From assembly GCF_000270205.1 (NCBI RefSeq), contig NC_015913.1, forward strand, positions 1,070,188 through 1,102,187: a stretch of 32,000 bases of DNA, written 5' to 3'. The first letter of the stretch is position 1, and each line of letters starts with the position of its first letter. Positions 3,364-26,377 of this stretch are shown piece by piece. A program made the position numbers and the translations under genes. Source of the stretch: Candidatus Arthromitus sp. SFB-mouse-Japan. GTDB taxonomy: Bacteria; Bacillota; Clostridia; Clostridiales; Clostridiaceae. The notes beneath the pieces are model-generated. The model saw only the letters and a program-made list of their open reading frames with translations. It was not told the origin of the DNA and ran no database searches.

Positions 3364-3524
3364 ATCGATTACCAACCTTCAAATTTTATAATAATTTATT
3401 ATACTCTTAATTTTAAGAATTAGCCAAAACACTCAAAAATTTTTTAGAGTATTTAATTCAAATATTGCAAACAATAATTATGTTTAATGATTTTTTACAT
3501 TGCAAATTATCAGGAGTGAAATTA

Positions 3525-6817: not shown

Positions 6818-7579
6818 TTAATACTCTTTCAAAATTCCTTTTAGCTTTGCTAATACCCTTTTTTCAATACGAGAAACCTGTACCTGACTAATTCCAAGTA
6901 CAGATGCTACTTGAATTTGTGTCTTATCTTTAAAATATCTAAGCATTATAATTTGCCTACTTTTTTCATCAAGTTTACTTATCATTTCTTTTAACACGAG
7001 CCTATTTAAAATAATTGAATCATCAGAAACTTTTTCTTCAATTTTATCGATCAAAAGAATTGGTGATCCGTCGTCTTGATGTACAGTATCGTATAAATAC
7101 TGCGTACTTGAACAAGAATCTATAGCCAAAATTATATCATCAACACTTAATTTAGTATATTCAGCCAATTCATAAACCGTTGGTTCTCTATTCAATTCTT
7201 TTGTAAGCTCATCACGCTTAAACATTATTTTTCTTGATATCCCTTTTACATTTCTACTAATTTTAACGATTCCATCATCTCTCAAAAACCTTTTTATTTC
7301 ACCCAAAATCATAGGAACCGCATAAGTAGAGAATTTAACATTATAATCGCTATTAAAATTTTTAATAGCTTTAATAAGTCCAAGTGCTCCAACTTGGTAA
7401 ATATCATCATAATCATATCCCCTACCTAAAAATTTTTTACTTAGTGATGCAACTAATGGTAAATTAATTTCCAAGAGCAAATCTTCAGCTTTTTTATCTC
7501 CATCTTTAACTCTCTTTAAGAGCTCATCATTTTCATAATGACGTAAAGTATTACTGGAGACTGCATTTTCATGTGCCAT
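6818..7579 (-). CDS. sigF: Sporulation forespore sigma factor SigF
   Basis: 253-aa sigma-70 family protein. Region 2 is YDDIYQVGALGLIKAIKNFNSDYNVKFSTYAVPMILGEIKRFLRDDG and the region 4 HTH is TQIQVASVLGISQVQVSRIEKRVL. It is the third gene after spoIIAA and spoIIAB, the canonical spoIIA operon order. An AAGGTGAG RBS overlaps the end of spoIIAB. Confidence 0.9.
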   Translation of the reverse strand: MAHENAVSSNTLRHYENDELLKRVKDGDKKAEDLLLEINLPLVASLSKKFLGRGYDYDDIYQVGALGLIKAIKNFNSDYNVKFSTYAVPMILGEIKRFLRDDGIVKISRNVKGISRKIMFKRDELTKELNREPTVYELAEYTKLSVDDIILAIDSCSSTQYLYDTVHQDDGSPILLIDKIEEKVSDDSIILNRLVLKEMISKLDEKSRQIIMLRYFKDKTQIQVASVLGISQVQVSRIEKRVLAKLKGILKEY

Positions 7580-7591
7580 TATACACTCACC

Positions 7592-8038
7592 TTACTTTTT
7601 TATATACTTTACCATTCTAATATGAGTTCCTTTATCCTTGCCACTCTCCACATATAATTCATCCATAAAGCTTTCCATCACAGAAAATCCCATACCTGAA
7701 CGCTCAAGATCAGGTCTTGATGTATACAAAGGCTCTCTTGCCTGAACAATATCATCAATTCCACATCCATGGTCTATAACACTTATTATAACTTTGTATT
7801 TGTCATTTTCATTTTCTTCTTCATCTTCGATACTAACATTAATAATCACATTAGTACTTTTATCTTCATTATAGCCATGTATTATAGCATTAGTAACAGC
7901 TTCTGATACTGCAGTTTTAACATCACTAATCTCTTCGAGCGTTGGGTCCAATTGAGCAATAAACGCAGCAACAGCAACCCTAGCAAAACTTTCATTGCTA
8001 GATCTACTGCTTAAAGTTAAACTCATAGTATTTTGCAT
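7592..8038 (-). CDS. spoIIAB: Anti-sigma F factor (serine protein kinase) SpoIIAB
   Basis: GHKL kinase boxes are present: [11 protein letters not shown] (N box), DHGCGI (G1) and GMGFSVM (G2). The ATG at 8038 is preceded by AGGGGGA with a 5-nt spacer. The track start at 8056 would overlap spoIIAA and lacks an RBS. Confidence 0.9.
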
Positions 8039-8048
8039 ACAAATCCCC

Positions 8049-8393
8049 CTAAGCATTATTCATAACCTCTGTCAAATCACTATGTATTTTCACAATCTTA
8101 CTAATACCCGACAATTCAATAACTTTTTTGATCGTTTTATTCAAATTAATTAAAAACACTTGTCCATTCTTAGCTGTTATTTTCTTATGTCTTCCGATTA
8201 TTATTCCAATACCTGAACTATCCATAAACGAAACGTTTTTAAAATCAAAAACTAAATTTTTAGAAGTGGACGTATCTATGTAGTAATCTATTTTTATCCT
8301 TATGTATTCAGCCGAATGATGATCTAATTCTCCATTAAGATAAGCTACAATGGTATTATTTTGTTCTTCACAAAAAACTTCCAAAAAAAACAT
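8049..8393 (-). CDS. spoIIAA: Anti-sigma F factor antagonist SpoIIAA (STAS domain)
   Basis: [18 protein letters not shown] matches the SpoIIAA L-x-G-E-L-D-H-H-x-A-E block, and [13 protein letters not shown] contains the phosphorylatable Ser of the DSSG motif. It is the first gene of the three-gene operon. AAGGA abuts the ATG, so the TTG at 8384 is a possible alternative start. Confidence 0.85.
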
Positions 8394-12095: not shown

Positions 12096-12130
12096 AAAAA
12101 ATAAAAAAAGGAAAGGAAAATCCTCTCCTT
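12096..12130 (-). terminator. Intrinsic terminator of paralog A
   Basis: 10-bp stem aaggaaagga (12108-12117) / tcctctcctt (12121-12130) with one mismatch and a 3-nt loop. A T-rich tract follows on the minus strand. It lies 5 nt after the stop codon. Confidence 0.65.
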
Positions 12131-12135
12131 TTTTA

Positions 12136-15100
12136 TTAATATCTTAGTCCCATAGAAGTAATATATTGTTTGAATTCTGATTCATTCATCATTTCACTAG
12201 CTATTCTTATTCTTAATTCTGCCAATGACTCTACTTGTAATTTATATTCATCATATTTTCCTTCCCAATACTTCTGTCCTTCTTCTTCAGGATCTCTTCC
12301 AACAACTATTTTATACATCATTTTTACGAATTCTTCTTTACTAAGATATCTGCTTATAAATTCATCTTGTTTCATCAAACCATAAATAAATTGAGTCACT
12401 GGTAATTCCTTAGATTCCAATTTTTGAACCCAAAATTTCCAACCCTCAACTTCTGGATCACGTCCAAGTGAAACAGAATAAATTTTTGATACAAATTCTG
12501 CAACTTTTCCAGTAGGTGGTTGTAATTCTTGTTTTGTCGTAAAAGAATCAATTTTATATCTAGTTATTAAACCATTCTCAAGTTTAAAAGTTATCTCTAA
12601 ATCTCTGTAAGTCGTCATTGGTTTCAAGTCGCTTAATCTTAAAATTAATGAATTTGTATCCCAAGTAAATTTAATTTTTTCATCATTCAAAGCTACACTA
12701 GATATTTTTGATTTTGGAGATGCGAATAATTCAAATACAATTTCCGCACTCTTATCAGTAGTAGTTATTTTCGTTGATTTTACATCAACAGATGGAGATT
12801 GAGGTGTGGATATTTTTGCATATTTTGATAATGTTTGTTCTTTATTATCCTTATCTTTCCAAATAAAATCAAGTTTATATACTGATTCAGTCTTTGGCTC
12901 TAGATTTGTGAATTTTAAGAGTCCTCCCTCTAACTTAAGCTCAACATTAGGATTATTGCTTGGCTTTTGGAAGTCAATTCTTAAAAATCTTTCATTTAAA
13001 TCATCAATTAATACTGGTATTTCAGCTTTTCTAGCCTCTAAAGTTTTGGCCTCAAATAAAGTTACATTAAATGAATCTGTTACACTCAACTCTGGTCCTG
13101 TCTGGTTATCAAGCGTTACATCTGGAACTTGGTGTATACCTGTAGTCGTAAAAACTGCACTTGGAGATGTAGGCGCACTAGGTATACTAACATTAGTTAT
13201 TTTATTAATATCATTCAATACTTGTCTTGTAATAAGTTCTCTCTTATCGATGTCTATATAGCTAAGTTCAAGAATCAAAAATCCATAATCTCTCTTCTCT
13301 GACAAATTATACAAAGTTAAAATAAAATAAATTTTCTCTTTCCCTTCAATTTTTTCAACTTTGTATTTCTCTTCACCTTTAAGTCCATTAACAGTTAAAT
13401 TCTTAATAGTTACATCACTATTATCAACTTCTATTACATATCTTAGAGATGTTTTATCATTCTTAACAGCAGGTATTATTGTTTTATTTGGAAGTTCAAC
13501 ATTTAATTTTGGAAAAAATACTTCAACTGTATCAGTGGAAGAAGCTGCTGACGAAAAAATTCCTTGTTTTATATCAACATATTTTTTTTCTGGATCAAGT
13601 TCTATATAGAGCTTAGGCTCTGTAAAGTTTGAAGTTCTAATTGATAAATTATGCGTGCTTACAGTTGTTACAGTTGTTACAGTTGAACTACCACTAGTAG
13701 TAGCAGATGTCATTATTTGTGAAAAGTAAAAAGTTTTTGTTATATCTTTGTCTTCTGGCTTCGCTGTTACATATAACTTTCTAAATGTATATGGAGTCGA
13801 TCTCTGTAATCCTGTTATATTAAGATATCCACCTTTTTCTGGTTTATCTGTATTAATTAAAGAAACAGATGCTGAATATTTGTTAAGTCTATCATCTTCT
13901 ACTTCCATCTTTGTTATTGTACTATCTTTATCAAATATCTTGAAAGTATTAAATCTTATGCTATTACCATTAGTTCTCAAGGCTATATTTGAAGCTGTAG
14001 TTGATATCATTTGTTCATAATCCAAATAAGTTGTATCATCTATAGAATTAAAATCAATATTCATTTTTGAACCTACATTACTATTAGGTAATGTATATAT
14101 CATATTTGAAACTTCAAGTGATGAATTTGATGATGATACTAAATAAGTTTCAAAAAGTGGTAATTGTTTACCAGTCTTGAAGTTTGTCATGCCGAATCCT
14201 TCAAGATAGTTAACAACTGATAGATTATTAAGATCAGGATAAAAAGTAATATTCTTGTTTAACGCAATAAACTGGTAATTTGTGTTAGTCTTCAAAAATT
14301 CGTATGGTTGAAAATCAGATCCATTCTTTATATCAAATTTTATAGCCATTCCATCAGCATTCAAATTCAAATTAGATGCTTTAACATTACTAGTCACAGA
14401 ATTATTGATTAATGAATCTTCTGCTATGATACTTCTTAAATAATCCATGCTTGTTGGAAATATAGTTTCTCCATCATAAATTACTGAAACTTGTTTAGGA
14501 GAAATATCATCAATATCTTTAAAACCAAATATTAATGGTAACGTATCACGATCATAATCAACATCATTAGACTGAAATACTTTTCTTAAAGCTAATGCCA
14601 AATGAGCTCTGTTTGTTATATTAGGTATTCCTGCAGGAGCACTAGGCGATGTCATCCCAGCTGGAGTTCTAACTCCATTAATATCATCAATCATCTCATT
14701 TGCAGCTTTGATCATAAAGTCTCTTAAACTAGCTGTTACAGTTGTCGGTGTACTAGAAATACTAGAAATACTAGAATCCATAAATACAACATCGTTTAAA
14801 TTAAAAGATGAAACTAATGATACTGTTGCAATAACATCCAAAATTTTTCCAGTCAATACGAAATTTGACTTAGCCTTACCTTGGAAAGTATACATTCCAC
14901 TCTCAACTGTAGTCTCTGCAGTAGATATTATTAAATCTACTCCTCCAATTGTACTCTTAAACTGCGAAATCGTTCCTGTTGGCTTAGTTACATTACTTGG
15001 AATTCTTGTATCTTCTACTGCTCTTGTCGCACCATAAACAGACATATTATCTAAATTATCTATTATTTCTTGATTAATTTTGGATTCATCTTGTAAATCA

Positions 15101-15663
15101 CTTATAATTTCTGAACTATCATTCGAAACTACTTGATCAATACTTAAATCTGGAATGATACTATCTTGGACTCCATCCATCTGTTCTACTTCCGTGTTTC
15201 CTTGATTATATTCTCCTGATCCGGACACGGTAACTCCATTCTCTTGAGCATCCGTTTGATCTTGTGAATCGTTTGTATTGTCCTCACTGTTATTTTCACT
15301 TTGTAGTGCATTTTCTTGACTGTTTGTTTCGTCATTTTCAATAATTTGTTCAGAATCTTCTTTCTTTTCAAATTCCATTTGAACAACATCTCCTTCCTCC
15401 ACTAATATTGTTTCCTCTTCTTTAGTGGATTCCTGAAAATCTTGTAATGGTTGTTCATTTTCACTCACGACCGTCTCCATATGTTCTAATTTTTCTACCT
15501 CATCTACGCTTTCAGCTGTATTTTTACTAATCCCACTATTAGCTTGCTCCATAATTTTATTATAAATTTCATTGAAATTTAATGAGTTATTATCATTTTG
15601 GTCTTTCATGAATTTTTTGATTCCTTTAAAATTAATTGATTCAATATCATTATTAGTTACCAT
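12136..15663 (-). CDS. Giant DUF4214-tailed protein, paralog A (no signal peptide; acidic low-complexity N-terminal module)
   Basis: 1175 aa. From SQFKSTIGGVDLII to the C-terminus it aligns with the three downstream-numbered paralogs, for example SLRYVIEVDNSD...RDYGFLILELSYID and PKSKISSVALND. The C-terminal ~125 aa is a tandem DUF4214-like repeat (LGRDPEVEGWKFWVQKL...VGRDPEEEGQKYWEGKY). An E/D/Q/N-rich region covers about 15049-15516. The N-terminus has no hydrophobic segment. There is an in-frame stop 4 codons upstream of the ATG and no good RBS. Confidence 0.85.
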   Translation of the reverse strand: MVTNNDIESINFKGIKKFMKDQNDNNSLNFNEIYNKIMEQANSGISKNTAESVDEVEKLEHMETVVSENEQPLQDFQESTKEEETILVEEGDVVQMEFEKKEDSEQIIENDETNSQENALQSENNSEDNTNDSQDQTDAQENGVTVSGSGEYNQGNTEVEQMDGVQDSIIPDLSIDQVVSNDSSEIISDLQDESKINQEIIDNLDNMSVYGATRAVEDTRIPSNVTKPTGTISQFKSTIGGVDLIISTAETTVESGMYTFQGKAKSNFVLTGKILDVIATVSLVSSFNLNDVVFMDSSISSISSTPTTVTASLRDFMIKAANEMIDDINGVRTPAGMTSPSAPAGIPNITNRAHLALALRKVFQSNDVDYDRDTLPLIFGFKDIDDISPKQVSVIYDGETIFPTSMDYLRSIIAEDSLINNSVTSNVKASNLNLNADGMAIKFDIKNGSDFQPYEFLKTNTNYQFIALNKNITFYPDLNNLSVVNYLEGFGMTNFKTGKQLPLFETYLVSSSNSSLEVSNMIYTLPNSNVGSKMNIDFNSIDDTTYLDYEQMISTTASNIALRTNGNSIRFNTFKIFDKDSTITKMEVEDDRLNKYSASVSLINTDKPEKGGYLNITGLQRSTPYTFRKLYVTAKPEDKDITKTFYFSQIMTSATTSGSSTVTTVTTVSTHNLSIRTSNFTEPKLYIELDPEKKYVDIKQGIFSSAASSTDTVEVFFPKLNVELPNKTIIPAVKNDKTSLRYVIEVDNSDVTIKNLTVNGLKGEEKYKVEKIEGKEKIYFILTLYNLSEKRDYGFLILELSYIDIDKRELITRQVLNDINKITNVSIPSAPTSPSAVFTTTGIHQVPDVTLDNQTGPELSVTDSFNVTLFEAKTLEARKAEIPVLIDDLNERFLRIDFQKPSNNPNVELKLEGGLLKFTNLEPKTESVYKLDFIWKDKDNKEQTLSKYAKISTPQSPSVDVKSTKITTTDKSAEIVFELFASPKSKISSVALNDEKIKFTWDTNSLILRLSDLKPMTTYRDLEITFKLENGLITRYKIDSFTTKQELQPPTGKVAEFVSKIYSVSLGRDPEVEGWKFWVQKLESKELPVTQFIYGLMKQDEFISRYLSKEEFVKMMYKIVVGRDPEEEGQKYWEGKYDEYKLQVESLAELRIRIASEMMNESEFKQYITSMGLRY

Positions 15664-15711
15664 TTTAATGTTTTATGACAAATTTAATGAACTTTATTTC
15701 ATAAAAATAAA

Positions 15712-15745
15712 TTAAAAAAATAAAGAACTCATAATAATGAGTTCT
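15712..15745 (-). terminator. Intrinsic terminator of the 85-aa ORF
   Basis: 9-bp stem agaactcat (15724-15732) / atgagttct (15737-15745) with an aata loop. On the minus strand it is followed by TTATTTTTTTAATTT. Confidence 0.7.
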
Positions 15746-15784
15746 CTTTATACAAAATAACTGCTATTAAATAATCTACCTATA

Positions 15785-16042
15785 TTAATCTGTTACACCA
15801 TCTTCTATTAAGTTAGTAGTAACAAGCTTAACATCATATCTTGTGTGATCAACTAGTTCTGCTACAGCTCTCGCTGCTGCACTCAAAATATCATTTGTCA
15901 ATCCTGACTTTATGTCTGCAATTGTTCTTGTAAATTTTCTCACAGTTCCATCAAGATTATCAGTATAAAAAGTTATTACAAGGCTAGTAGCTAGCGTTGT
16001 AGATGTTATTACTTGAGTGTTAAATAGATTGCTTACTCCCAT
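15785..16042 (-). CDS. Small protein, reminiscent of DUF1659/DUF2922 Firmicutes families
   Basis: 85-codon ORF with a GGAGA RBS ~10 nt upstream and its own terminator. The pattern LVITFYTDNLDGTVRKFTRTIADIKSGLTNDILSAAARAVAELV...VKLVTTNLIE resembles the L-x-L-x-F-x-x-x-x-G-K...I-x-D-P-K-x-x-L-T...V-x-x-A-M-x-x-I layout I recall for DUF2922/DUF1659. This comes from memory, not a search. Confidence 0.5.
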   Translation of the reverse strand: MGVSNLFNTQVITSTTLATSLVITFYTDNLDGTVRKFTRTIADIKSGLTNDILSAAARAVAELVDHTRYDVKLVTTNLIEDGVTD

Positions 16043-16079
16043 GTCTACACATTCTCCACAGCTATTATTATTTCAAAAT

Positions 16080-16140
16080 AGTAGATGAACTCGGTATAAG
16101 GGGCTTTTCTGGATAATTGGTGAATTCAAGTTCATCTACT
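16080..16140 (-). other. 12-bp perfect inverted repeat with 37-nt spacer (weak terminator or leader structure) between paralog B and the 85-aa ORF
   Basis: agtagatgaact (16080-16091) and agttcatctact (16129-16140) are exact reverse complements. On the minus strand the structure is followed by ATTTTGAAATAATAATA, then the RBS of the small ORF. Confidence 0.4.
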
Positions 16141-16182
16141 TTAATATAATATTATCTGTTATAACAATTTATTCCAAAAATT

Positions 16183-19100
16183 TTAATACCTAAGTCCTAT
16201 TCTAGTTACTAACTCTTTAAATTCTGGTTGATCCATCATTTCTCTTGCAATCTTAATTCTAAGTTGCTCAATAGTTGAAACCTGGTCCCTGTATTCGACA
16301 TATTTACTTTCCCAGTATTTTTGACCTTCCTCTTCTGACTCCCTATCTACTATTAAAGTATACATCGTTGAAACAAACTTAGATTTAGTTAGCTCTCTAT
16401 CAACAAATTCTGGTTGAGTCATTAAATTCTCAGCTATAAATTCTGTAGCACTAAGTTCTTTACTTTGTAATTTCTCTATCCAAAAATTCCATCCTTCATT
16501 TTCTGGTTCACGTCCAAGTGCAATCTTATAAACTCTCCTCACAAATTCAGCCACATCACCTTTTGGTCTATTCTCATCAATAACTGTCTTAAAAGTTCCA
16601 AGTGGATATTCAACACTCTTGCCATTTTCTAAAATTAATCTTATAATAACATTTGTGTAGGTGTAGTCTGGTTTAAGTCCTTCTAATTTTATAGTGCTTA
16701 TATCTTTATCCCATGTTGCCTTAAGAGCATTGTTTAAATCATCAAGAACTGTAACTGACTTCACCTCCGATTTTGGATTGTTATAAATGTTTAATTTAAT
16801 ATTTACTTTAGTTAGGTCTACAACCTCAATATCCGTGGACTTAATATCATAATCTGGTGTTTCTGTAGTACTCAACTGAACATATTTTTTTATCTGTTTT
16901 GTTTCTCTAGAAACACCATTATCTTCGCAATTAAATATTATAGTAAACATCCCACTCGTTTCTGGTTTCAAATCGCTAAATTCCAATATAAAGTTATCAT
17001 AACTTACTCTAGCATTTGGATTATCTACAGGATTTTCAACATCAATTGAAGTTACTCTATTTTCTAGGTCATCAATTAAAATCGGAACTCTTGCCACTCT
17101 TGCATATGATGATGTAAAACTATCACTCAATGAAATCTGCACGGCCTCTTCAATCGGTAAAGACTCGGCCTCAGTCATGTTGTCATATTTTGTATTTTCA
17201 CCTTTTGTCGAATTTAATGTAGATAAACTCTTCCTAGAAGTTTGAACGTTACCACTATCATCTAAATAATTTAATTCCAAAATTACAAATCCATAATCTT
17301 TATTCTTCTCTAAATTGTTTAAAGTTACTATATAGTAGTTTTGTTTCTGAACCCTATCTACTATCTTCTCAACTTGATATGATTCCGAACCCGTAAGACT
17401 TATAACTTTAAGATCTAAAATATTTCCTTGCTTATTATCAACTTTAAAAACATATCTTAGAGCTGTATCAGAATTTTTAACGGTATTCATTTCAATACCA
17501 TTTGGAAGTTTAACTGTCGAAGAATTTGTAGCTGCCAATTGAATTTTTGGTTCAGGTTGCTTAATAGTCCTTATAGGTATATAATTCTGTTTCACACTTC
17601 CATTATCATAACAACCCAAATCCAATTCTTGGCTTGTCATTCTTCCATCCGTATTTGATGTAATAAATAATTTTGTAAAAATATAAGACGTATCGCTTTC
17701 AAGACCATTAACTTCAATCGAAAAAGTATCTGTATATTCTGAAATTAAACTACAACTATATCTATAACCTCGATCATCCTGAATTTCAACCCTTGATATA
17801 CTCCTATCAGGATCACGGAAAGTTATATTTTTAAATTTAATAGAATTTTCTGCGATAGAAATATCTGATTCACTTGTCCCATATGATCCCATATCCAAAT
17901 AAACACCATTTTTAAATTGTGTAACATACATATCATTTTTTGATGTACCTTGTAAGTTTTGAGAATTTGTTTCATATAAATTAGGTTTCGCTGCATTTTT
18001 AGATATAAACAATGCTGGTGCTTTACCTGTTTTACAATTACTTAATCCAGTTAAAGTCAACTTAACATCATCGCCGACAGTTATATCTCGATTTGTTTGT
18101 GACTCCTCTAGAGCACCAAGACTATAAACTGTATTAGTTAGAAGTTTATCACCAACATTTTCATTTCTAACTACAATTCTCAAAGCAATATTACTTGGAT
18201 CAATTCCATTATCTAATTTCGTATTACCTAGATCAATGATGCTTTTTATATAATCATCAGTATTAGGTACAAAATCTGAACTCATTTTAATCTTCTTCAC
18301 ACCATGTGTACTTTCAAATGATAATTGTGCATTCATATCATCTAATATCTTAGAAAGGGCATCACGAAGTTTCTTTCTCTCTGTTACAGTTTCAGAACTA
18401 CGGTCACCTTTTGCCTCTTGATATGCTCTCTTAATTAAATCTCCAAGAGTTCCAGTTTCAAAATTTTTAACTCCATAAGTTAAAGGCTCTTCTTCAGTAT
18501 CTTCTACATCATCTGTAATGTCACTATCCTCAGAGTCTGTTGGAGGTTTTGTTGATTCACTCGGTGATTCTTGTGATGGTGGTAAGCTTGATGATCCTTC
18601 CATATTAACTTCATCATCACTGGGTTGATCTGTACTTCCTCCATCAACTTCTGGTTTTTCTTCTTCACCAACATCTGGAGTCCCATTTACACCATTATCT
18701 GGAATTCCTTCTCCCTCATCTGGTTTATTACCACCATCTTCTGTTGGTGGTTTTTGTTCTCCATCTCCATTACTCGGTTTATCACTATCTTCTCCTGATG
18801 AATCTCCTGAACCATCATCAGTACCTCCCTCTGAAGGCTTGTTCTCATCTTCTCCATTATCTATATCACCTCCACCAGTTCCATCATCTGGTTGTTCTGG
18901 AGTTACTGGTATATCAATCTTTGACTCTAATATTTTTCCTGATAATTTCAAACTCAACTCTATTGTTCCATAAGGTGTATATGATTCTCCCGCTCCAACT
19001 AGCTCAGAACTTCCTGTACTTTTTACAATCTGAACTTGACTTTGATTTGTTACTGTTGGCTCTGAAGGTTGTTGATCTCCTCCACTTTCTGGTGGTGTTT

Positions 19101-19524
19101 GAGAAGTATCTCCATCACTACCAGTTGGTGGTGTTGTATCTCCTTCAATTGTTGGCGGTATTGCAACTTCATCGTTTGATGGAGGTTTACTTGAACCCCC
19201 TTCATCCACTGATGGTCCCTCTGAATCTTCACCTTCACCACCTTCAGAACCATCTCCTGAACTATCATCACTTGGTGGTATAGTTCCCTCTACTTGTTCT
19301 GTATCGTCAGGATTCTCACTTTCTTCACTAGATTCTCGAGTAATCGTAGTATTTAAATATGCGTACAATGAATCACTATCTTGACTTACCTCAGCTCTTG
19401 CGTAATTCAAAGCTGTTGCAACTTCCCTATTATATTGTGTACTATAAGGCACAAAGCATCCTGAAAAAATACTTGATGTAACAAACATCGTAATTAACAT
19501 AAAACTAACTTTTCTCTTATTCAT
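16183..19524 (-). CDS. Giant surface lipoprotein with C-terminal DUF4214 tandem, paralog B (two P/E/D/G/S-rich modules)
   Basis: 1113 aa. Signal peptide MNKRKVSFMLITMFVTSSIFSGC (lipobox FSGC, Cys23) with a GGGAGGG RBS. Low-complexity modules lie at about 19051-19335 and 18487-18912. The core aligns with paralogs A, C and D. The C-terminal ~127 aa (LGREPENEGWNFWIEKL...VDRESEEEGQKYWESKY) is about three quarters identical to paralog C by hand alignment. Confidence 0.9.
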   Translation of the reverse strand: MNKRKVSFMLITMFVTSSIFSGCFVPYSTQYNREVATALNYARAEVSQDSDSLYAYLNTTITRESSEESENPDDTEQVEGTIPPSDDSSGDGSEGGEGEDSEGPSVDEGGSSKPPSNDEVAIPPTIEGDTTPPTGSDGDTSQTPPESGGDQQPSEPTVTNQSQVQIVKSTGSSELVGAGESYTPYGTIELSLKLSGKILESKIDIPVTPEQPDDGTGGGDIDNGEDENKPSEGGTDDGSGDSSGEDSDKPSNGDGEQKPPTEDGGNKPDEGEGIPDNGVNGTPDVGEEEKPEVDGGSTDQPSDDEVNMEGSSSLPPSQESPSESTKPPTDSEDSDITDDVEDTEEEPLTYGVKNFETGTLGDLIKRAYQEAKGDRSSETVTERKKLRDALSKILDDMNAQLSFESTHGVKKIKMSSDFVPNTDDYIKSIIDLGNTKLDNGIDPSNIALRIVVRNENVGDKLLTNTVYSLGALEESQTNRDITVGDDVKLTLTGLSNCKTGKAPALFISKNAAKPNLYETNSQNLQGTSKNDMYVTQFKNGVYLDMGSYGTSESDISIAENSIKFKNITFRDPDRSISRVEIQDDRGYRYSCSLISEYTDTFSIEVNGLESDTSYIFTKLFITSNTDGRMTSQELDLGCYDNGSVKQNYIPIRTIKQPEPKIQLAATNSSTVKLPNGIEMNTVKNSDTALRYVFKVDNKQGNILDLKVISLTGSESYQVEKIVDRVQKQNYYIVTLNNLEKNKDYGFVILELNYLDDSGNVQTSRKSLSTLNSTKGENTKYDNMTEAESLPIEEAVQISLSDSFTSSYARVARVPILIDDLENRVTSIDVENPVDNPNARVSYDNFILEFSDLKPETSGMFTIIFNCEDNGVSRETKQIKKYVQLSTTETPDYDIKSTDIEVVDLTKVNIKLNIYNNPKSEVKSVTVLDDLNNALKATWDKDISTIKLEGLKPDYTYTNVIIRLILENGKSVEYPLGTFKTVIDENRPKGDVAEFVRRVYKIALGREPENEGWNFWIEKLQSKELSATEFIAENLMTQPEFVDRELTKSKFVSTMYTLIVDRESEEEGQKYWESKYVEYRDQVSTIEQLRIKIAREMMDQPEFKELVTRIGLRY

Positions 19525-19544
19525 TTCAAACCCTCCCTGTTTTT

Positions 19545-19575
19545 AAAAAAAAAGATGGCTAGATAAGCCATCTTT
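19545..19575 (-). terminator. Strong intrinsic terminator between paralogs C and B
   Basis: Perfect 10-bp stem aaagatggct (19551-19560) / agccatcttt (19566-19575) with a 5-nt loop. On the minus strand a continuous run of 9 T starts within the descending arm of the stem and extends past it (complement of the plus-strand A run 19545-19553). An A-rich tract precedes the stem, so it could act in both directions. Confidence 0.85.
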
Positions 19576-19589
19576 CTTTTTTGAAATGA

Positions 19590-22500
19590 TTAATATATCA
19601 ATTGAAGTTTAGTCACTAACTCTTTAAACTCTGGTTGATCCATCATTTCTTTTGCAATTTTAATTCTTAACTCAGCTATAGACTTAACTTGATCCTTGTA
19701 TTCATCATATTTTCTTTCCCAATAGTTTTGGCCATCACTATCTGGCTCCCTATTAACTATTAATGAATACATTGTCGTAACAAACCTCGATTTACTTAAC
19801 TCCCTATCCACAAATTCTGGTTGAGTCATTAAGTTTTCTGCAATAAATTCTGTAGCTGAAATCTCTTTTGATGTTAATTTTCCAATCCAAAAATTCCATC
19901 CTTCAACTTCTGGCTCACGTCCAAGAGCTATTGTATAAACTCTTGCAACAAAATCTGCAACTGCTCCAGTTGGTTTAATAATTTCTTCGCTAGTTGTAAA
20001 TGGAGTCAACTCATATTTACTTGTCAATTTATTTTCGAGAGTAAATGTTACTACAAGCTCACTATACTCTTTGTTTGATTCAAGATTATACAATGTTATA
20101 GTATTAGTTGTTTTATCCCAAGAACTTCTTATTACCTTAGAGTTTTTATCTTTAATTTCTATTGCCTTAATAGGTGATTTTGGATTTTCATAATACTCAA
20201 GTTTTATAGTCACTTCATTTCCTTTAACAGTTGCTGTATCGCTCTTAATATCTACTTCTGGCACAGCTGGAGTCATAACTTTTAAATATTTTGTTAATAC
20301 TTTATCATTACCACTTGCATCTTTGTAATTAAATTCTAAAGTTATTGTTGTAGTTGCATTAGGTTTTAATCCTGTAACATCTAAATAAGAATCCTTATAC
20401 TCAACTTTAACATCTGAATTATTTGTTACAGGTTTAAAAGTCATACCAGATACTCTTCCATAAATATCATCAACAAAAACTGGAACTCTTGCTTTTCTTG
20501 CATATTCACTCTTAAACTCATCATTCATTATTACGTTAACATCATTTAATCCTGTTAAAGCTTCCTTCTCTGTTCTATTATCCATTGTTGGATTTTTATC
20601 ATCAGTCTTATAAATATTTCCTATAGATTGTCTTGTAGTTTTATCATTACCACTTGCATCCTTATAACCAAGCTCAAAAATCACATGACTATAATCAGTA
20701 TTAGGTGTAAGACCTGTTAAAGTTACTATATAATAGTTAGTTTTTGTCTTACTATCTTCAATCTTTTTAACATCTGCTTTCTCATTTGAAGTTAAAGAAA
20801 GTACTTGTAAATCTCCAATATTTCCTTCATTATTATCAACTTTAACTATATATCTAAGTGCTGTAGAATCATTCTTAACTGGTTTTACTTTTAATCCATT
20901 AGGTAAAGTAACATCTTCAGTTACCTTTGCAGAACCTAATTCTATTTTTGGCTCAGAAACTTGAGTTGTTCTAACAGATAATTGGTTAGCTGTAACATTA
21001 TTACTAGCATCCACGTTAGCTAAATCGATTGTAACCGTTTTATCTTTTACCCCAGTGTTTGAAGTTACAAGCAATTTTGTAAACGTGTATGACATATCCC
21101 TCTCAAGGTTATTTACTTGAACATAATATCCATTATCTTTATTTGAAAGATCAACTGGAACTAGACTACACGTATATTTTGTACCTCTAGCATCCTGCAT
21201 TTCAATTTTCACAATAGTACTATCTGGATCGTTTAAAACTATATTTTTATATTTAATTGATGTTCCACTAGCTACTATTCCTTCTTTAACATTTTCGTGA
21301 TAATCTGTCATGTTTAAATAAATTCCTGGTTTAATCATCGTTGTTATATATTTATCTTTTAAAGTACCCTTATCAGTACCTGATGAAGTCTGATATATAA
21401 CACTTGTAGTTTTATCTTCCTTCTGAGCTGTTAAAATTGAAGGTGATTTACCCGTTCTACATTCTGGTACTGTAAAGCCTGATATGAATTGATTATCATT
21501 TGCATCTACCTTAATATTATTTCCATCACTGTTAGTTCCACCTATACCAACAAATGTATAGTCAGTGTTGGTTTTTAATATTGAGTTATCATTATTTGAT
21601 GCAGAACTATTTCTTATCATCATTCTTAATACAACATCTTTAGAATCCGTAGATCTTGCAGTTCTCATAGTTCTTCCTGTAGTCCTCATACTGTTTAAAT
21701 CTATAATACCTCTTACATAATCCTTGTTACTAGTTTTATCTGGGAATATATCGCTAATTGGAACATTTACAAGGGTACCTTTTGGATCTCTAAACATTAA
21801 CGTTTTTCCTGTATTATTATCACAAATCACTTTTTTAAGAGCAGCTTGCAAAGCTTCTCTAGCTGTTGTTGTACCTTCTCCTGACCATCCACTGTTAGAA
21901 TCTTTAATTGCTTCATCAAAGGCACCTGAAATTAATCCACTTAGATTTTCTTTATTTAATACTTCTCCTGATAACTTAAAGCTCAAATAAATAACACCTT
22001 GAATATTACCATCATCACCTGTACCTATTACTTCGCTTGATCCAACACTCTTTAATGGTACGAATTCTCCTATCGTTGTTCTTTCTGTGCTAGCTTGTGG
22101 AGAAATAGCAGATTGTGAATTAGACTGTGGAAGATTTGGATCATTTTGAGCATTATTATTAATAGTTACTCCACTAGTTGATGGTGTTGTTCCTTCGCTA
22201 ACTCCATTATTTGGAGATATAATATTCCCTTGTCCTGAATTATCTACTACACCTGTACCTTGTGAAATGCCTGAATTATCTACTATATCTGTACCTTGTG
22301 AAGAATTTGAACCTGTTAAATCATTTGTATCAGTCAATGAAGAAATATCATCTTCTACAACAGCTCCCCCAAATCCTGTCATAGTATTACCGTTACTAAA
22401 TGAATTAATATTATCATTTGATATTATTTCATCAGATGGAGACATTTCATATGGTGTCATTTCATAATCTGTTCCCATTTGATCAAATAAATTTGTATCA

Positions 22501-22877
22501 TTTGACCTTGCACCCATTTTTATATCATTTGTTGTTTCACCATTTTGAATTCCATTGTCATATACATTTGTGTCACCACTAAAAATATTTTGATCATCCA
22601 TTAATGCTCCATCTGTAATTTCATCACCATAGGTAACATTTGGATAATTTCCAGGATTATAATCTGGCGCTGTATTATCTGTATATGGGTTATTTACTCC
22701 ATATCCATCTCCTGTATATTCTGTAACAGTTCTATCTGTTGCTCTTCTAAATGCATCCTCTCCTTGTGCTACATTTGCACCATTATCTGCACTCTTATTA
22801 TTTGATGTGCATCCTGTTAACATACTTGAGGCAACAACTAATCCAGTTAATAGAAGTGTAATTTTTTTTCTATTCAT
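19590..22877 (-). CDS. Giant surface lipoprotein with C-terminal DUF4214 tandem, paralog C (N/S/T/G/D-rich module)
   Basis: 1095 aa. Signal peptide MNRKKITLLLTGLVVASSMLTGC (lipobox LTGC, Cys23) with an AGGAGG RBS. The low-complexity module lies at about 22077-22808. Serial beta-sandwich-like modules cover aa ~538-962 (nt ~19992-21266) and carry recurring G-L-x-P-x-T-x-Y type motifs. The DUF4214-like tandem covers aa ~969-1095 (nt 19593-19973). Confidence 0.9.
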   Translation of the reverse strand: MNRKKITLLLTGLVVASSMLTGCTSNNKSADNGANVAQGEDAFRRATDRTVTEYTGDGYGVNNPYTDNTAPDYNPGNYPNVTYGDEITDGALMDDQNIFSGDTNVYDNGIQNGETTNDIKMGARSNDTNLFDQMGTDYEMTPYEMSPSDEIISNDNINSFSNGNTMTGFGGAVVEDDISSLTDTNDLTGSNSSQGTDIVDNSGISQGTGVVDNSGQGNIISPNNGVSEGTTPSTSGVTINNNAQNDPNLPQSNSQSAISPQASTERTTIGEFVPLKSVGSSEVIGTGDDGNIQGVIYLSFKLSGEVLNKENLSGLISGAFDEAIKDSNSGWSGEGTTTAREALQAALKKVICDNNTGKTLMFRDPKGTLVNVPISDIFPDKTSNKDYVRGIIDLNSMRTTGRTMRTARSTDSKDVVLRMMIRNSSASNNDNSILKTNTDYTFVGIGGTNSDGNNIKVDANDNQFISGFTVPECRTGKSPSILTAQKEDKTTSVIYQTSSGTDKGTLKDKYITTMIKPGIYLNMTDYHENVKEGIVASGTSIKYKNIVLNDPDSTIVKIEMQDARGTKYTCSLVPVDLSNKDNGYYVQVNNLERDMSYTFTKLLVTSNTGVKDKTVTIDLANVDASNNVTANQLSVRTTQVSEPKIELGSAKVTEDVTLPNGLKVKPVKNDSTALRYIVKVDNNEGNIGDLQVLSLTSNEKADVKKIEDSKTKTNYYIVTLTGLTPNTDYSHVIFELGYKDASGNDKTTRQSIGNIYKTDDKNPTMDNRTEKEALTGLNDVNVIMNDEFKSEYARKARVPVFVDDIYGRVSGMTFKPVTNNSDVKVEYKDSYLDVTGLKPNATTTITLEFNYKDASGNDKVLTKYLKVMTPAVPEVDIKSDTATVKGNEVTIKLEYYENPKSPIKAIEIKDKNSKVIRSSWDKTTNTITLYNLESNKEYSELVVTFTLENKLTSKYELTPFTTSEEIIKPTGAVADFVARVYTIALGREPEVEGWNFWIGKLTSKEISATEFIAENLMTQPEFVDRELSKSRFVTTMYSLIVNREPDSDGQNYWERKYDEYKDQVKSIAELRIKIAKEMMDQPEFKELVTKLQLIY
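20302..20667 (-). repeat. In-frame intragenic repeat pair in paralog C, 339 nt (113 codons) apart
   Basis: ttatcattaccacttgcatctttgtaa (20302-20328) and ttatcattaccacttgcatccttataa (20641-20667). The first 20 nt are identical and 25 of 27 match overall. Both encode YKDASGNDK at the end of consecutive beta-sandwich-like modules. Confidence 0.8.
22233..22304 (-). repeat. 36-nt in-frame tandem duplication inside the variable module of paralog C
   Basis: cctgaattatctactacacctgtaccttgtgaa (22234-22266) and cctgaattatctactatatctgtaccttgtgaa (22270-22302) sit 36 nt apart. They encode SSQGTDIVDNSG / ISQGTGVVDNSG. Confidence 0.8.
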
Positions 22878-22889
22878 AACCTTCTTAAA
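22838..22889 (-). repeat. 52-nt cassette (12 nt of leader + signal-peptide codons 1-13 and first base of codon 14), copy at paralog C
   Basis: The plus-strand string ctaatccagttaatagaagtgtaattttttttctattcataaccttcttaaa is identical, letter for letter, at 22838-22889 and 26146-26197. Confidence 0.9.
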
Positions 22890-22930
22890 ACCTCCTAATT
22901 TATAAAATAACCTTCGTAATTTTATCTAAA

Positions 22931-25900
22931 TTAATATTTTAATCCTAATGAAGTTACTAACTCCTTGAACTCCTTCTCATTCATCATTTCTCTTGCTATT
23001 TTAATTCTCAAGGTTGCAACTGAACTTGTTTGTTCTCTGTATTCGTTATATTTTTTCTCCCAATAACTTTGTCCATCTTCATCTGGAGTTCTATTAACTA
23101 TCAATGAGTACATAGTTGTAACGAATTGTTGTTTATTTAACTCTCTTTCAATAAACTCTGGTTGAGTCATTAAATTTTCAGCTATAAACTCTGTAGCTGA
23201 AAGCTCTTTAGACGTTAATTTATTAACCCAGAAATTCCATCCTTCAGCCTCTGGCTGACGTCCAAGTGCTATTGTATAGACTCTTGATACAAAGTTCGCA
23301 ACATCACCTGTTGGTTTTGGAGTAACTGTACCAGTTTTAAATGAAGTTAATGGATACTCTATAACTTCTGTATTTTCTAAAGTAAACTTAGCAATCAATC
23401 CTTTAAACTCCGTATTTGCATCCAATCCTTGTATAAAAATTGAATTTGTTGATGAATCCCAATTAGAAGTATATTTTTTACCTGTTGAATCCTCAATTGA
23501 TATAGATTTAATAGGAGATTTTGGTGTTGAATAATACTCAAGTTTAACTATAGCCTCATTTTCCTTAATAATCACTGTATCTGATTTAATATCTAAATCT
23601 CCTGTAACTGGTGTCTTTATAGTTACATACTTTCTCATACTTTTCTCTATACCAGCATCAGTTTTATAAACAAATTCTAAAGTAATAGTAGTGCTTGAAT
23701 TTGGAGTTAAACCTGTTACATTTACATAAGAACCATCATACTCAACTTTAACATCTAAATTTGATTCTAATGGAATGTAATTCATCCTAACAAATCTTCC
23801 ATTCATATCATCAATGAATAATGGAACTCGCGTACTCCTTGCATAATCAGCTTTATGATTTGTTTCAATATCTACTGTAAAAGTGCCTTGTCCTGTAATA
23901 GGAGTATTCTCTGTTACGTTATCAACTGTTTTATCATCTCTCTTAGTATTAATTTGAGCTAATGTTGTTCTAAGAACCCCATCTTTTCCATCATAATCTT
24001 TATAATCTAATTCTAAATTAACAAAATTATAATCTGTTCCTGGAGATAGACTACTTAAAGTTACTACATAATAATTAGTTTTACTTTTCTTATCTACAAT
24101 CTTTTGAATCTTAGACTCTTCTCCAGGTCTTAAACTCGTTACTCTTAACTCCCCAATATTATCTTCGGAATTATCAACTTTTAAAACATATCTAAGAGAA
24201 GTTGCATCATTCTTAACAGCTTGTACCTTTAATCCACCAGGAAGTGTAACAGTTTGTTTTGGTCCATCTGCTCCTAACTCTAACTTTGGCTCACTAAAGT
24301 TAGTTGTTTTAATTGCTGTAGTATTAACTGTAGCCCCCGCAGTATCTTTTTTCATCAATTGAAGTACGTTTAATTGATCCTTACCTTCAGTATTTGTAGT
24401 TATATCAATTTCTGTAAAGATGTAACTACTATCAGTTCTTAATCCACTAATTTGCAAATATTTACCAGCTTTTTTGTTATCAGGATCTACTTGAATTAAT
24501 GTTCCAGGATAAGTTTTGCCCTCTGAATCTTTCATTTCAATCTTAACTATACTATCATCAGAATCAACAAACTTAATCCCTTTAAATCTTATAGTTGTAC
24601 CCCTAGCCTCTACTTTATCAGGACTATTTAAATCGAAATCTTCTACGTTTAGATAATTTTTCTTATTAAGTTTTGTTACATATACCGTTCCAGTAGTTAC
24701 AGTTCCTGCTGAACCATTACTAAGATTTTCATATATAGCACTAGTTGAACTGTCTTTCATTATTTGTATAGTAGAAGGAGCTTTAGCTGTTGTTGCTTGA
24801 GGAATTCTTAATCCTGTAAGAACTTTATCATCTTTTATTGGTAACTCATTATTCTTAACTGTGCTACCAGTTAAACCTACAAATGTATAACTTGTATTTG
24901 TAGCTAACTCATCATTACCTTGTCCATCTGCACTTTGAAATCTCATAATAAGTGTAATTGGAATATCTTGTGAAGTAGCTCTTACTGATCTTTTTCCACC
25001 ATCTCTGTACATACCATCAATGTCAATTATTCTTCTTACATACTGTGAATTTTTATTCTTATCAGGACAAATATTAGCAGCTGTATATGGTATGTTAATT
25101 ATTTGACCCTTACTGTCCTGAAATGTAAAATTATTACCAGTATCTGTTGGATTAAATATCTCAGCTAATCCTTTTTGTAAAGCTTCTCTTGCTGTAGTAT
25201 TTTGTGCAGCTCCTTCAAAGTTTGTATTCGCATCTTGTAAAGTTTCTTCATAAGCCTTTTGTATTAAATCAGCTAAAGTACTTTGAGTACTGCCATTGGT
25301 AACTTGTGTAGAAAGTACATCTCCTGTTAACTTGAAACTAAATCTAATAGTTCCTTGTGGTTTTTTACTTCCTTGAGCACCGGTTAATTCTACACCACCA
25401 ATACTTCTTACAGGTACTATATTACCAGCTACAGTACTTTGAGTATTTCTACCCTCTTGTATTGTTTGTGGAGTATCCATGACTTGTCCATTAATATCTG
25501 AACTCATATTTGTATTTGGAGTCATTCCATTCTGAGTATTATTATTTACATCCATATCATTTTTAGTTGTGTCAGAATTATTAGATATATTTGGATTTTC
25601 AGTTGTATTTAGATTGCTATCAACTCCATTTATCCCAGACACATCTTGTCTACTTGAATTTGTTGACCCATCTGATAAATCACTTCCATTTGTTCTATCT
25701 GGTAATCTTCCAAAACCATTCAATGGCTCCATGATAGACGCATTGTTTTGGAATTCATTTATATTATCTTTTCCTGACACATCCTCTGATGAAATCAAAT
25801 TATTTCCCGTTCCATTTTCATTTATTGACTCATCAGATGTTATATCTCTAGAATATCTATTTAAATTCTCATCTACTGAGTTATTAAATCCATTATCAGT

Positions 25901-26185
25901 TCCATTATCAAACTCATTAACTGTATCCATTCCCGTTATATCATCAGCATAAGCAACATCTGGATATCCTCCAGATTGATATTGATTATTAGAATTGTAT
26001 GGATATTGCGCTTCTTCTTTAAACTCTGTTACAATTCTCTCTGTTGCTCTCTGCAATCCATTCTCATCATATTGAGAAACTTTATTGTTATCTTGAGTTT
26101 TGTTACCTGATGATGCACATCCTGTAAATATACTTGAGGCGATCGCTAATCCAGTTAATAGAAGTGTAATTTTTTTTCTATTCAT
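22931..26185 (-). CDS. Giant surface lipoprotein with C-terminal DUF4214 tandem, paralog D (N/S/T/G/D-rich module)
   Basis: 1084 aa. Signal peptide MNRKKITLLLTGLAIASSIFTGC (lipobox FTGC) with an AGGAGG RBS. The low-complexity module lies at about 25433-26116. The core and C-terminus are colinear with paralog C. It sits 53 nt upstream of paralog C with no terminator between them. Confidence 0.9.
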   Translation of the reverse strand: MNRKKITLLLTGLAIASSIFTGCASSGNKTQDNNKVSQYDENGLQRATERIVTEFKEEAQYPYNSNNQYQSGGYPDVAYADDITGMDTVNEFDNGTDNGFNNSVDENLNRYSRDITSDESINENGTGNNLISSEDVSGKDNINEFQNNASIMEPLNGFGRLPDRTNGSDLSDGSTNSSRQDVSGINGVDSNLNTTENPNISNNSDTTKNDMDVNNNTQNGMTPNTNMSSDINGQVMDTPQTIQEGRNTQSTVAGNIVPVRSIGGVELTGAQGSKKPQGTIRFSFKLTGDVLSTQVTNGSTQSTLADLIQKAYEETLQDANTNFEGAAQNTTAREALQKGLAEIFNPTDTGNNFTFQDSKGQIINIPYTAANICPDKNKNSQYVRRIIDIDGMYRDGGKRSVRATSQDIPITLIMRFQSADGQGNDELATNTSYTFVGLTGSTVKNNELPIKDDKVLTGLRIPQATTAKAPSTIQIMKDSSTSAIYENLSNGSAGTVTTGTVYVTKLNKKNYLNVEDFDLNSPDKVEARGTTIRFKGIKFVDSDDSIVKIEMKDSEGKTYPGTLIQVDPDNKKAGKYLQISGLRTDSSYIFTEIDITTNTEGKDQLNVLQLMKKDTAGATVNTTAIKTTNFSEPKLELGADGPKQTVTLPGGLKVQAVKNDATSLRYVLKVDNSEDNIGELRVTSLRPGEESKIQKIVDKKSKTNYYVVTLSSLSPGTDYNFVNLELDYKDYDGKDGVLRTTLAQINTKRDDKTVDNVTENTPITGQGTFTVDIETNHKADYARSTRVPLFIDDMNGRFVRMNYIPLESNLDVKVEYDGSYVNVTGLTPNSSTTITLEFVYKTDAGIEKSMRKYVTIKTPVTGDLDIKSDTVIIKENEAIVKLEYYSTPKSPIKSISIEDSTGKKYTSNWDSSTNSIFIQGLDANTEFKGLIAKFTLENTEVIEYPLTSFKTGTVTPKPTGDVANFVSRVYTIALGRQPEAEGWNFWVNKLTSKELSATEFIAENLMTQPEFIERELNKQQFVTTMYSLIVNRTPDEDGQSYWEKKYNEYREQTSSVATLRIKIAREMMNEKEFKELVTSLGLKY

Positions 26186-26197
26186 AACCTTCTTAAA
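26146..26197 (-). repeat. 52-nt cassette (12 nt of leader + signal-peptide codons 1-13 and first base of codon 14), copy at paralog D
   Basis: Identical to 22838-22889. After a 1-nt indel, the following cctcctaa (the RBS complement) is also shared. Confidence 0.9.
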
Positions 26198-26342
26198 CCT
26201 CCTAAATTTTTAAAATAGCACTTAATAAAAATAAATAACTCGAACCTTTTAAAAAATAAAAATATTTAATAAATCAGCAATTTCTTAACTACTGATAAAA
26301 CTATTATGAACAATTTATTTTTTTATATTCATATTTTAAAAT

Positions 26343-26373
26343 AAAAAAAATGACTACTCTAAGAATAGCCATT
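26343..26373 (-). terminator. Strand-specific intrinsic terminator of the deacetylase/antiporter operon
   Basis: 11-bp stem at 26349-26359 / 26363-26373. On the minus-strand RNA every position pairs (two are G-U wobbles), and a run of 8 U follows. On the plus strand the same two positions are mismatches. Confidence 0.65.
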
Positions 26374-26377
26374 TTAA

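Follow-up and report, generated by a model that had tools for sequence, protein, structure and literature searches.

Four large DUF4214 paralogs at a conserved locus of segmented filamentous bacteria: candidate structural proteins of the cell envelope

What do four large, related proteins encoded side by side in a gut symbiont do, and in which part of the cell? The question is raised by a stretch of 32,000 nucleotides from Candidatus Arthromitus sp. SFB-mouse-Japan (NC_015913.1, positions 1,070,188 to 1,102,187 of the forward strand), referred to here as the window, which carries four paralogous genes that we call A, B, C and D, all ending in a tandem of DUF4214 domains. Segmented filamentous bacteria (SFB) are a model commensal for the induction of Th17, IgA and CD8 responses through intimate, host-specific contact, and several of their known T- and B-cell antigens are DUF4214 proteins; the locus adds four large relatives to these. 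With moderate confidence we propose from the sequence evidence that it encodes structural proteins of the cell envelope of about 120 kDa, found only in the SFB lineage, with B, C and D lipidated and DUF4214 acting as a wall-docking module.

The genes are arranged in the order D-C-B-DUF1659-A in a window that is AT-rich (24-36% GC). The original prediction, made from the DNA letters alone, had placed all four exactly and on the correct strand. It had described a head-to-tail array filling 44% of the window: the four paralogs are at the locus and the figure is correct for their span (43.9%), but the coding sequence alone occupies 41.9% and the DUF1659 gene separates B from A. D is identical in all residues to SFBM_1027 of SFB-mouse-Japan. 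The counterparts of B, C and D are EGX28524-28522 in SFB-mouse-NYU and AID45005-45007 in SFB-mouse-NL, while A, for which the database gave no named entry, was assigned by gene order to SFBM_1023 / AID45003 / EGX28526. C matched a cluster of NCBI sequences at 100% identity and a protein of Candidatus Arthromitus sp. SFB-rat-Yit at 77%. We found no paper in the literature that names SFBM_1023-1027.

A-D are colinear over about 800 residues at 31-43% pairwise identity and are therefore ancient paralogs, and cross-matches among them and the rat SFB copies had BLASTP E-values of 1e-102 to 0. This bears out the predicted colinear paralogy, though the four segments quoted in its support were in the order C/D/B/A and not A/B/C/D. 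The C-terminal tandem is likewise as predicted: DUF4214 (PF13946) was found twice in each protein, at 54.7, 51.0, 62.7 and 56.0 bits against a cut-off of 23.2, and the G-R-x-P-E repeat pair is present, except that the second motif starts with N or D instead of G in B, C and D. Nothing else scored above threshold in Pfam, with fn3 (PF00041) below its gathering score of 25 in C (18.9 bits) and D (13.3 bits) and not found in A or B; NCBIfam gave nothing, and PDB sequences searched with the family profile gave 0 matches. Profile and fold searches placed the conserved core in no known enzymatic or housekeeping family, in agreement with the earlier description of an uncharacterised family, here also lineage-specific, in which no enzyme motif could be recognised.

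To obtain a domain plan, residues 270-1095 of C were modelled with AlphaFold2 from 12 family sequences, giving a mean predicted local distance difference test (pLDDT) score of 85.4 and a predicted template modelling (pTM) score of 0.50. In the model the head, made up of a long beta-hairpin, a pair of long helices and a beta-rich subdomain, is followed by four beta-sandwiches and an all-helical DUF4214 pair. The head found no match when searched with Foldseek against the PDB and BFVD (best E 3e-3, template modelling score about 0.2). Foldseek against the PDB matched exclusively strings of Ig, FN3 and cadherin domains, such as those of NCAM2, PTP-delta, filamin, titin and SraP, and no enzyme. 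The serial beta-sandwich modules of the original prediction are thus four Ig/FN3-like modules, but the alpha/beta head of about 260 residues in front of them had not been separated out. In D the head (254-524) is again followed by four beta-sandwiches and by two DUF4214 domains (957-1084). B carries an acidic insert of about 150 residues, rich in D/G/E/P, that parts the N-terminal hairpin (163-200) from the head (from about 348), and A has an acidic, E/N/S/D/Q-rich N-terminus, a larger head and extra inserts before its two DUF4214 domains.

Between the signal peptide (or the start) and this core lies an acidic low-complexity segment of 210-340 residues. In A-D it consists of 67-79% D/E/N/Q/S/T/G/P with a net charge of -24 to -69, the latter value belonging to the P/E/G/D/S-rich tether of B; that of D (residues 24-253) is acidic and N/S/D-rich. 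We infer that the segment could serve as a wall-spanning spacer. Within the tether of C (22234-22302, minus strand) there is a 36-nucleotide tandem duplication, 94% identical, which codes for a repeated 12-residue unit.

Conservation climbs steadily along the chain, being lowest in the tether, higher in the head, higher again in the Ig modules and highest in DUF4214. In comparisons of mouse with rat SFB the tethers are 40-59% identical, the heads 65-81%, the Ig modules 76-85% and the DUF4214 domains 85-94%; between the mouse paralogs, whose tethers were not aligned, the corresponding values are 21-36%, 29-47% and 56-76%. Such a pattern would be expected of a tail in contact with some shared component of the bacterium and of remaining parts exposed to changing surroundings. 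It also fits a shared C-terminal wall-docking module, as already proposed in the SFB literature.

The other end of the proteins separates B, C and D from A. B, C and D start with MNK or MNR, followed by a hydrophobic stretch and by SGC or TGC, the Cys being residue 23; the lipoboxes as read from the sequences are IFSGC in B, MLTGC in C and IFTGC in D. All three comply with a PS51257-type rule (positive n-region, uncharged h-region, lipobox [LIVMFWSTAG]2-[LIVMFYSTAGCQ]-[AGS]-C and Cys within residues 15-35), so the lipoprotein signal peptides predicted for them hold. Applied as a regular expression, the rule was passed by 20 of the 26 database homologs, and these carriers have an almost invariant signal peptide, MNRKKI[TA]LLLTGL, even in distant lineages. 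The rule was failed by A, which has no signal, and by the rat SFB ortholog of B (L001 13278-13400), in which a two-base change replaces the lipobox Cys by His (SGC to SGH); the SGH form was found again in a separate Logan assembly (P0012, with P0060 listed alongside), and lipidation of the rat ortholog is improbable. A Peptidase_A8 (LspA) gene is encoded by an SFB-like metagenome-assembled genome (MAG), and 12 lipoproteins have been predicted in human SFB (PMC7474095).

A has no signal peptide. A lost one was ruled out, as no remnant was found upstream in any frame. The start of its longest open reading frame (ORF), at 15663, has no ribosome-binding site (RBS) and is not conserved, and translation probably begins at the ATG at 15609 (MKDQNDNN...), which is preceded by AAAGGAA and conserved in a four-lineage alignment; database entries use still other starts (1172 aa). 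Signal-less copies of the A type are present in at least five lineages and form four distinct clusters among 26 family proteins. Since none of the lineages examined has an export signal on A, this protein is taken to be made in the cytoplasm, and surface display should not be assumed for it. The surface-display locus that had been proposed thus remains plausible for B, C and D, which are predicted lipoproteins with a tail that is the anchor proposed in the literature, but not for A.

Only the SFB lineage (Candidatus Arthromitus/Savagella and relatives) has the core family. A core profile from which DUF4214 was excluded, searched against 1.84 billion (1.84e9) cluster representatives, gave 38 matches, of which 20 were full-length with E<1e-150. 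In an alignment-based scan of one genome per GTDB species the family was found only in an uncultured Arthromitus MAG, in Candidatus Dwaynia gallinarum and in a low-GC Clostridiales MAG, whereas a genome scan with C as the single query gave no confirmed relative; a word-index search with the 128-residue DUF4214 tail gave 13 candidates, all fragments. In mouse, rat and other lineages the locus is flanked by a polysaccharide deacetylase gene on one side and by SBP_bac_5/M28 genes on the other. SFB-rat-Yit shows the gene order of the mouse locus, D-C-B-DUF1659-A, between the deacetylase and SBP_bac_5, and its 1:1 orthologs of D, C, B and A are 78, 77, 65 and 73% identical to the mouse proteins, most flanking genes being 83-91% identical. 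Deep lineages differ in the number of lipoprotein-type copies, which ranges between 1 and at least 5: in one Arthromitus MAG a signal-less copy follows the sole lipoprotein-type one, the Clostridiales MAG has at least five together with a signal-less copy adjoining SBP_bac_5/M28, and a further assembly has D-like and C-like copies. In an unbootstrapped neighbour-joining (NJ) tree the signal-less type is basal, followed by B, with the C/D duplication placed within the rodent-type lineage and an independent expansion in the MAG. A separate observation concerns Clostridiales MAG.106, where the signal-less copy at the A position (L008 7765-10620) has an A-type DUF4214 tail (GRDPEVEGWKFWVQKLESKEL...) and a core that groups in the NJ tree with a lipoprotein-type copy of the same genome, which could reflect a chimera, gene conversion or a tree artefact; that locus also carries an inserted TetR-like gene, an oleate-hydratase-like gene and a hydrolase gene.

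The protein class to which A-D appear to belong, and the idea that it is surface-anchored, are already published. Pamp et al. in 2012 described SFB-specific clusters (Cluster.1/Cluster.3) of predicted secreted proteins with a C-terminal DUF4214-like region, one member having FN3, and DUF4214 was common to about 19 secreted SFB proteins that were proposed to be components of surface structures (PMC3371716). The class is thus less new than the original prediction had assumed. Jonsson et al. in 2020 reported the same C-terminal motif in P3340, a wall-localised Th17 antigen, postulated that it acts as an anchor and noted that a sortase gene is absent from SFB (PMC7474095); in published genome analyses SLH and other usual clostridial wall-binding domains are largely absent as well. 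A 2025 cryo-electron tomography (cryo-ET) study regarded DUF4214 as a likely surface-anchoring domain, found a surface layer (S-layer) confined to the intracellular, unicellular offspring, a hair-like layer of unknown composition on filaments and hair-like structures at the adhesive tip, considered the outer layers probably not adhesive, and drew an analogy with B. anthracis for stage-specific replacement of surface layers (PMC12780176). By description A-D fit this SFB-specific secreted class, being SFB-restricted and carrying PF13946, with a secretion signal in B, C and D but not in A. SLH (PF00395) and CWB2 (PF04122) gave no Pfam match at E<=1 in A-D, nor was an LPXTG sortase signal found in them, the proteins ending ...GLRY, ...QLIY or ...GLKY right after the DUF4214 helices.

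At least B is expressed, since the tryptic peptide NFETGTLGDLIK, reported from mass spectrometry (MS) in a 2018 proteomic table, is found in B and not in A, C or D; the table lists it, together with EMMDQPEFK, which occurs in B and C, under 'DUF4214 domain-containing protein' (PMC6034559). Identity of A-D with the Th17/B-cell antigen P3340 (SFBNYU_003340) was considered and rejected: its gene lies 205 genes from D (AID45212 against AID45003-45007), its tagged mass is 113.76 kDa against untagged masses of 119.6-132.3 kDa for the four paralogs, and its first 399 residues gave an hhalign probability of 2.6% against the core profile. A putative Th17 epitope, QFSGAVPNKTD, is absent from the window. 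The DUF4214 protein SFBNYU_003240 is a CD8 T-cell antigen according to a 2026 preprint (PMC13174671), and the CD8 epitope SGLIYVTL is absent from the four proteins. A phage-display screen yielded the four antibody targets SFB3340, 3310, 5460 and 15470 (bioRxiv 10.1101/2023.10.13.562275). The NYU numbering runs opposite in direction to the NL numbering, and by extrapolation of gene order D would fall close to SFBNYU_005390 and A close to 005430, only a few genes away from 5460, which is no more than a tentative lead.

We propose that B, C and D would be exported, lipidated at Cys23 and held on the outer face of the membrane, from where the acidic tether would thread the thick Gram-positive wall. 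The head and the sandwich rod (roughly 25-30 nm if extended) would then form part of an outer envelope layer, with the DUF4214 pair docking non-covalently to a common component of the wall or surface layer. Such docking would take the place of the sortase, SLH and CWB2 systems that SFB reportedly lack wholly or for the most part. A, presumably synthesised in the cytoplasm, could contact the wall only from the mother-cell side during the formation of intracellular offspring or spores, or after lysis. Several points weigh against this model. We infer the envelope location of all four proteins, wall binding by DUF4214 is putative, and this domain is present in many unrelated bacteria, where to our knowledge it has no known role. 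A membrane anchor at the N-terminus combined with a wall anchor at the C-terminus would be an unusual, doubly tethered topology, and the tether is judged to be disordered from composition alone. The pTM of 0.50 leaves the domain-domain geometry of the full model uncertain. Lipidation is not essential for paralog B, since rat B has lost the lipobox Cys, and, as A has no signal, at least one member may never be extracellular.

The original prediction had compared the array with the variable surface lipoproteins of other bacteria, and a repertoire for antigenic or phase variation, as in Mycoplasma or Borrelia, would share some of its features: tandem paralogous lipoprotein genes with diverged exposed regions, a run of eight A within the signal-peptide codons of C (22862) and D (26170) in a window with just eight A or T runs of that length or longer, and RBS and signal-peptide DNA that is 87% identical between C (22803-22909) and D (26111-26217, both minus strand). 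The analogy nevertheless fails. The paralogs are ancient and have 1:1 positional orthologs in rat SFB, the A8 run codes for the conserved RKK of the signal peptide in all lineages, ten full-length D variants of mouse-SFB assemblies show 0-6 differences from the window copy over 1084 residues (>=99.4% identity), and the repeats reported for the window include no invertible promoter or element, silent cassettes or long tandem repeats. The 3' DUF4214-coding DNA of the paralogs is just 74-77% identical, so there has been no recent gene conversion. Antigenic variation is effectively excluded, and the family amounts to a stable complement of old paralogs whose heads have diverged; of the variability in strains and copy number for which the original prediction had suggested looking, D shows next to none among mouse strains, and that in lipoprotein-type copy number lies between the deep lineages. 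The diverged heads could also belong to host-contact adhesins or a holdfast that bind ileal epithelial ligands and set host specificity, to which we give a modest chance. Ig-like rods with a distal novel head are typical of Gram-positive adhesins, and SraP is among the fold matches. The head and tether evolve fastest between mouse and rat SFB, A-D fall below the genome-wide mouse-rat average identity of 83.4% (PMC3371716), copy number varies between host-specific lineages, and secreted hypothetical SFB proteins, which evolve faster, have been proposed as host-specificity factors (PMC7474095). Against this, the cryo-ET study argued that layers covering the whole cell are unlikely to be adhesive as the tip alone attaches (PMC12780176), no known fold of a lectin or adhesin was recognised in the head, and A has no export signal.

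That A is signal-less in every lineage would suit an envelope or coat specific to development, made during offspring or spore formation, with A deposited, in the manner of coat or exosporium proteins, out of the cytoplasm of the mother cell; we think this improbable, as each hint of it is weak. The spoIIAA-spoIIAB-sigF operon is 3.7 kb away, which may be coincidental. Upstream of D is the element GAATA-N17-CATAATA, which fits a forespore sigma-G-type promoter pattern and is the sole match in the window, where about 1.8 would be expected by chance; it reads as a sigma-A -35/-10 pair too, and CAT is missing in two of six lineages. As one of several patterns tried by eye, imperfect in two of the six, it supports no sigma-factor assignment, and we make none. 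The S-layer is found on intracellular offspring only (PMC12780176), and the domain of the intervening gene (DUF1659, E 6e-10) is statistically associated with endospore formers (PMC2955703), but that gene is absent from the locus in two other lineages, and the MS detection of B carries no stage information. A staphylococcal DUF1659 member, SroA, reportedly stabilises a sigma-factor mRNA. It is highly improbable that the proteins form a scaffold for nutrient capture together with the adjacent oligopeptide-binding SBP_bac_5 lipoprotein and the M28 aminopeptidase. SFB are auxotrophs that depend on host-derived nutrients, and in mouse SFB, MAG.106 and rat SFB (where M28 is cut at the end of the locus) the genes that come after A are SBP_bac_5 and M28, in that order. 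Terminator-like hairpins nevertheless part A from SBP_bac_5, A-D contain no signature of a binding or catalytic domain, and in a genome so small and so strongly syntenic, conserved gene order by itself says little.

The positions of the genes, domains and non-coding elements are collected in Table 1. The region upstream of D is strongly conserved although the proteins of the six genomes are just about 40% identical, and it looks like a promoter together with an operator or an element of the 5' untranslated region. Hairpins resembling terminators precede D, separate C from B and follow both the DUF1659 gene and A, so that the four genes are probably not one simple operon. An inverted repeat between the upstream regions of A and D (I1) was judged to be due to chance, being AT-rich, 75% similar and overlapping a terminator arm. 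Besides the sporulation operon, the flanks of the array, which fit an origin from mouse SFB, hold a chemotaxis receptor gene, a flagellin-like gene and, as a side observation in an ileal symbiont, a gene of the choloylglycine (bile-salt) hydrolase family (2368-3375, minus strand; Pfam CBAH, E 6e-66).

Table 1. Features of the locus, in window coordinates
Feature	Position	Strand	Remarks
Paralog A	12136-15663	minus	longest ORF, 1175 aa; SFBM_1023
Paralog B	16183-19524	minus	1113 aa; SFBM_1025 / AID45005.1
Paralog C	19590-22877	minus	1095 aa; SFBM_1026 / AID45006.1; the paralog modelled
Paralog D	22931-26185	minus	1084 aa; SFBM_1027 / SFBmNL_01102 / AID45007.1
DUF1659 gene	15785-16042	minus	85 aa, between B and A; SFBM_1024; syntenic in rat SFB
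C signal peptide	22809-22877	minus	residues 1-23, MNRKKITLLLTGLVVASSMLTG followed by C; lipobox; near-identical in D and distant SFB lineages
C tether	22071-22808	minus	residues 24-269; 71% D/E/N/Q/S/T/G/P, net charge -29; 57% identical between mouse and rat
C head	21279-22070	minus	residues 270-533; alpha/beta, ~260 residues; own AlphaFold2 model with pLDDT 84.6, pTM 0.80
C beta-sandwiches	19977-21278	minus	residues 534-967; four Ig/FN3-like modules
C DUF4214 tandem	19593-19976	minus	residues 968-1095; all-helical, most conserved part
Upstream region of D	26186-26377	minus	conserved in six SFB-lineage genomes (window, L001, L002, L005, L006, L009)
Deacetylase (PDA) terminator	26347-26375	minus	compensatory changes across lineages
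GAATA-N17-CATAATA	26302-26330	minus	conserved upstream of D
Palindrome ATCAGT-N12-GCTGAT	26273-26296	minus	conserved upstream of D
TGCTATTTT	26212-26220	minus	invariant, upstream of D
AGGAGG	26198-26203	minus	upstream of D
Terminator-like GC-rich hairpin and T-run	19551-19575	minus	between C and B, ~25 nt before the RBS of B
Terminator-like hairpin	15722-15747	minus	after the DUF1659 gene, upstream of A
Terminator-like hairpin	12104-12134	minus	directly after A
12-bp perfect stem with 37-nt loop	16066-16154		between B and the DUF1659 gene; possible terminator or RNA element after B
spoIIAA	8049-8393	minus	operon 3.7 kb downstream of A
spoIIAB	7592-8056	minus	same operon
sigF-like gene	6818-7579	minus	same operon

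If A-D are envelope proteins, as we propose, they are plausible candidates for the surface layers of SFB, namely the S-layer of the offspring, the hair-like layer of the filament and the hair-like structures of the adhesive tip. What is added here is the domain plan, with a head that matched no fold in the libraries searched; the split into lipoprotein-type and signal-less subfamilies, conserved across the lineage; the conservation gradient; a fixed locus with lineage-specific copy number; and the link to SFBM_1251 described below. The gain is at the level of candidates, which could serve as reagents for the ligand of DUF4214, the make-up of the outer layers and the role of the heads in host specificity or antigenicity. 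[quoted passage not shown]

Among known systems, the Vsp/Vlp proteins of Mycoplasma and Borrelia are likewise lipoprotein paralogs encoded in tandem, whose signal peptides are conserved while their mature regions diverge, but the array described here has no switching mechanism or strain-level variability and its orthologs are stable across host species. The SLH-, CWB2-, GW- and LysM-anchored surface and S-layer proteins of Firmicutes, such as SlpA/Cwp of C. difficile and Sap/EA1 of B. anthracis, also combine a conserved anchor module, putative in the case of A-D, with an otherwise variable large secreted paralog; Pfam detected no SLH or CWB2 in A-D, their anchor candidate is DUF4214, and S-layer proteins do not usually combine a C-terminal module with an N-terminal lipid anchor such as that predicted for B, C and D. 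The secreted DUF4214 clusters of SFB are closer, sharing the organism, the C-terminal tandem, the lack of catalytic domains and the proposed role as wall-anchored surface components, to which B, C and D add a lipobox and a long tether, whereas A has no signal of any kind. A more distant branch is formed by the SFBM_1251 family (P0218/P0038), present as a single copy of about 970 residues in the SFB lineage and adjoining lspA in one MAG (L003 6001-8910). Its beta-sandwich region is homologous to that of A-D (hhalign probability 99.6%, E 1.7e-23, 402 columns), while similarity of the heads is marginal (13%), and it shares the order of head, sandwiches and DUF4214 and the low-GC SFB-type genome context. 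It differs in having an ordinary signal-peptidase-I-type signal, no lipobox, no tether and a single copy, and it is better conserved (51-60% across most lineages sampled). This family is another candidate for a major surface protein of SFB.

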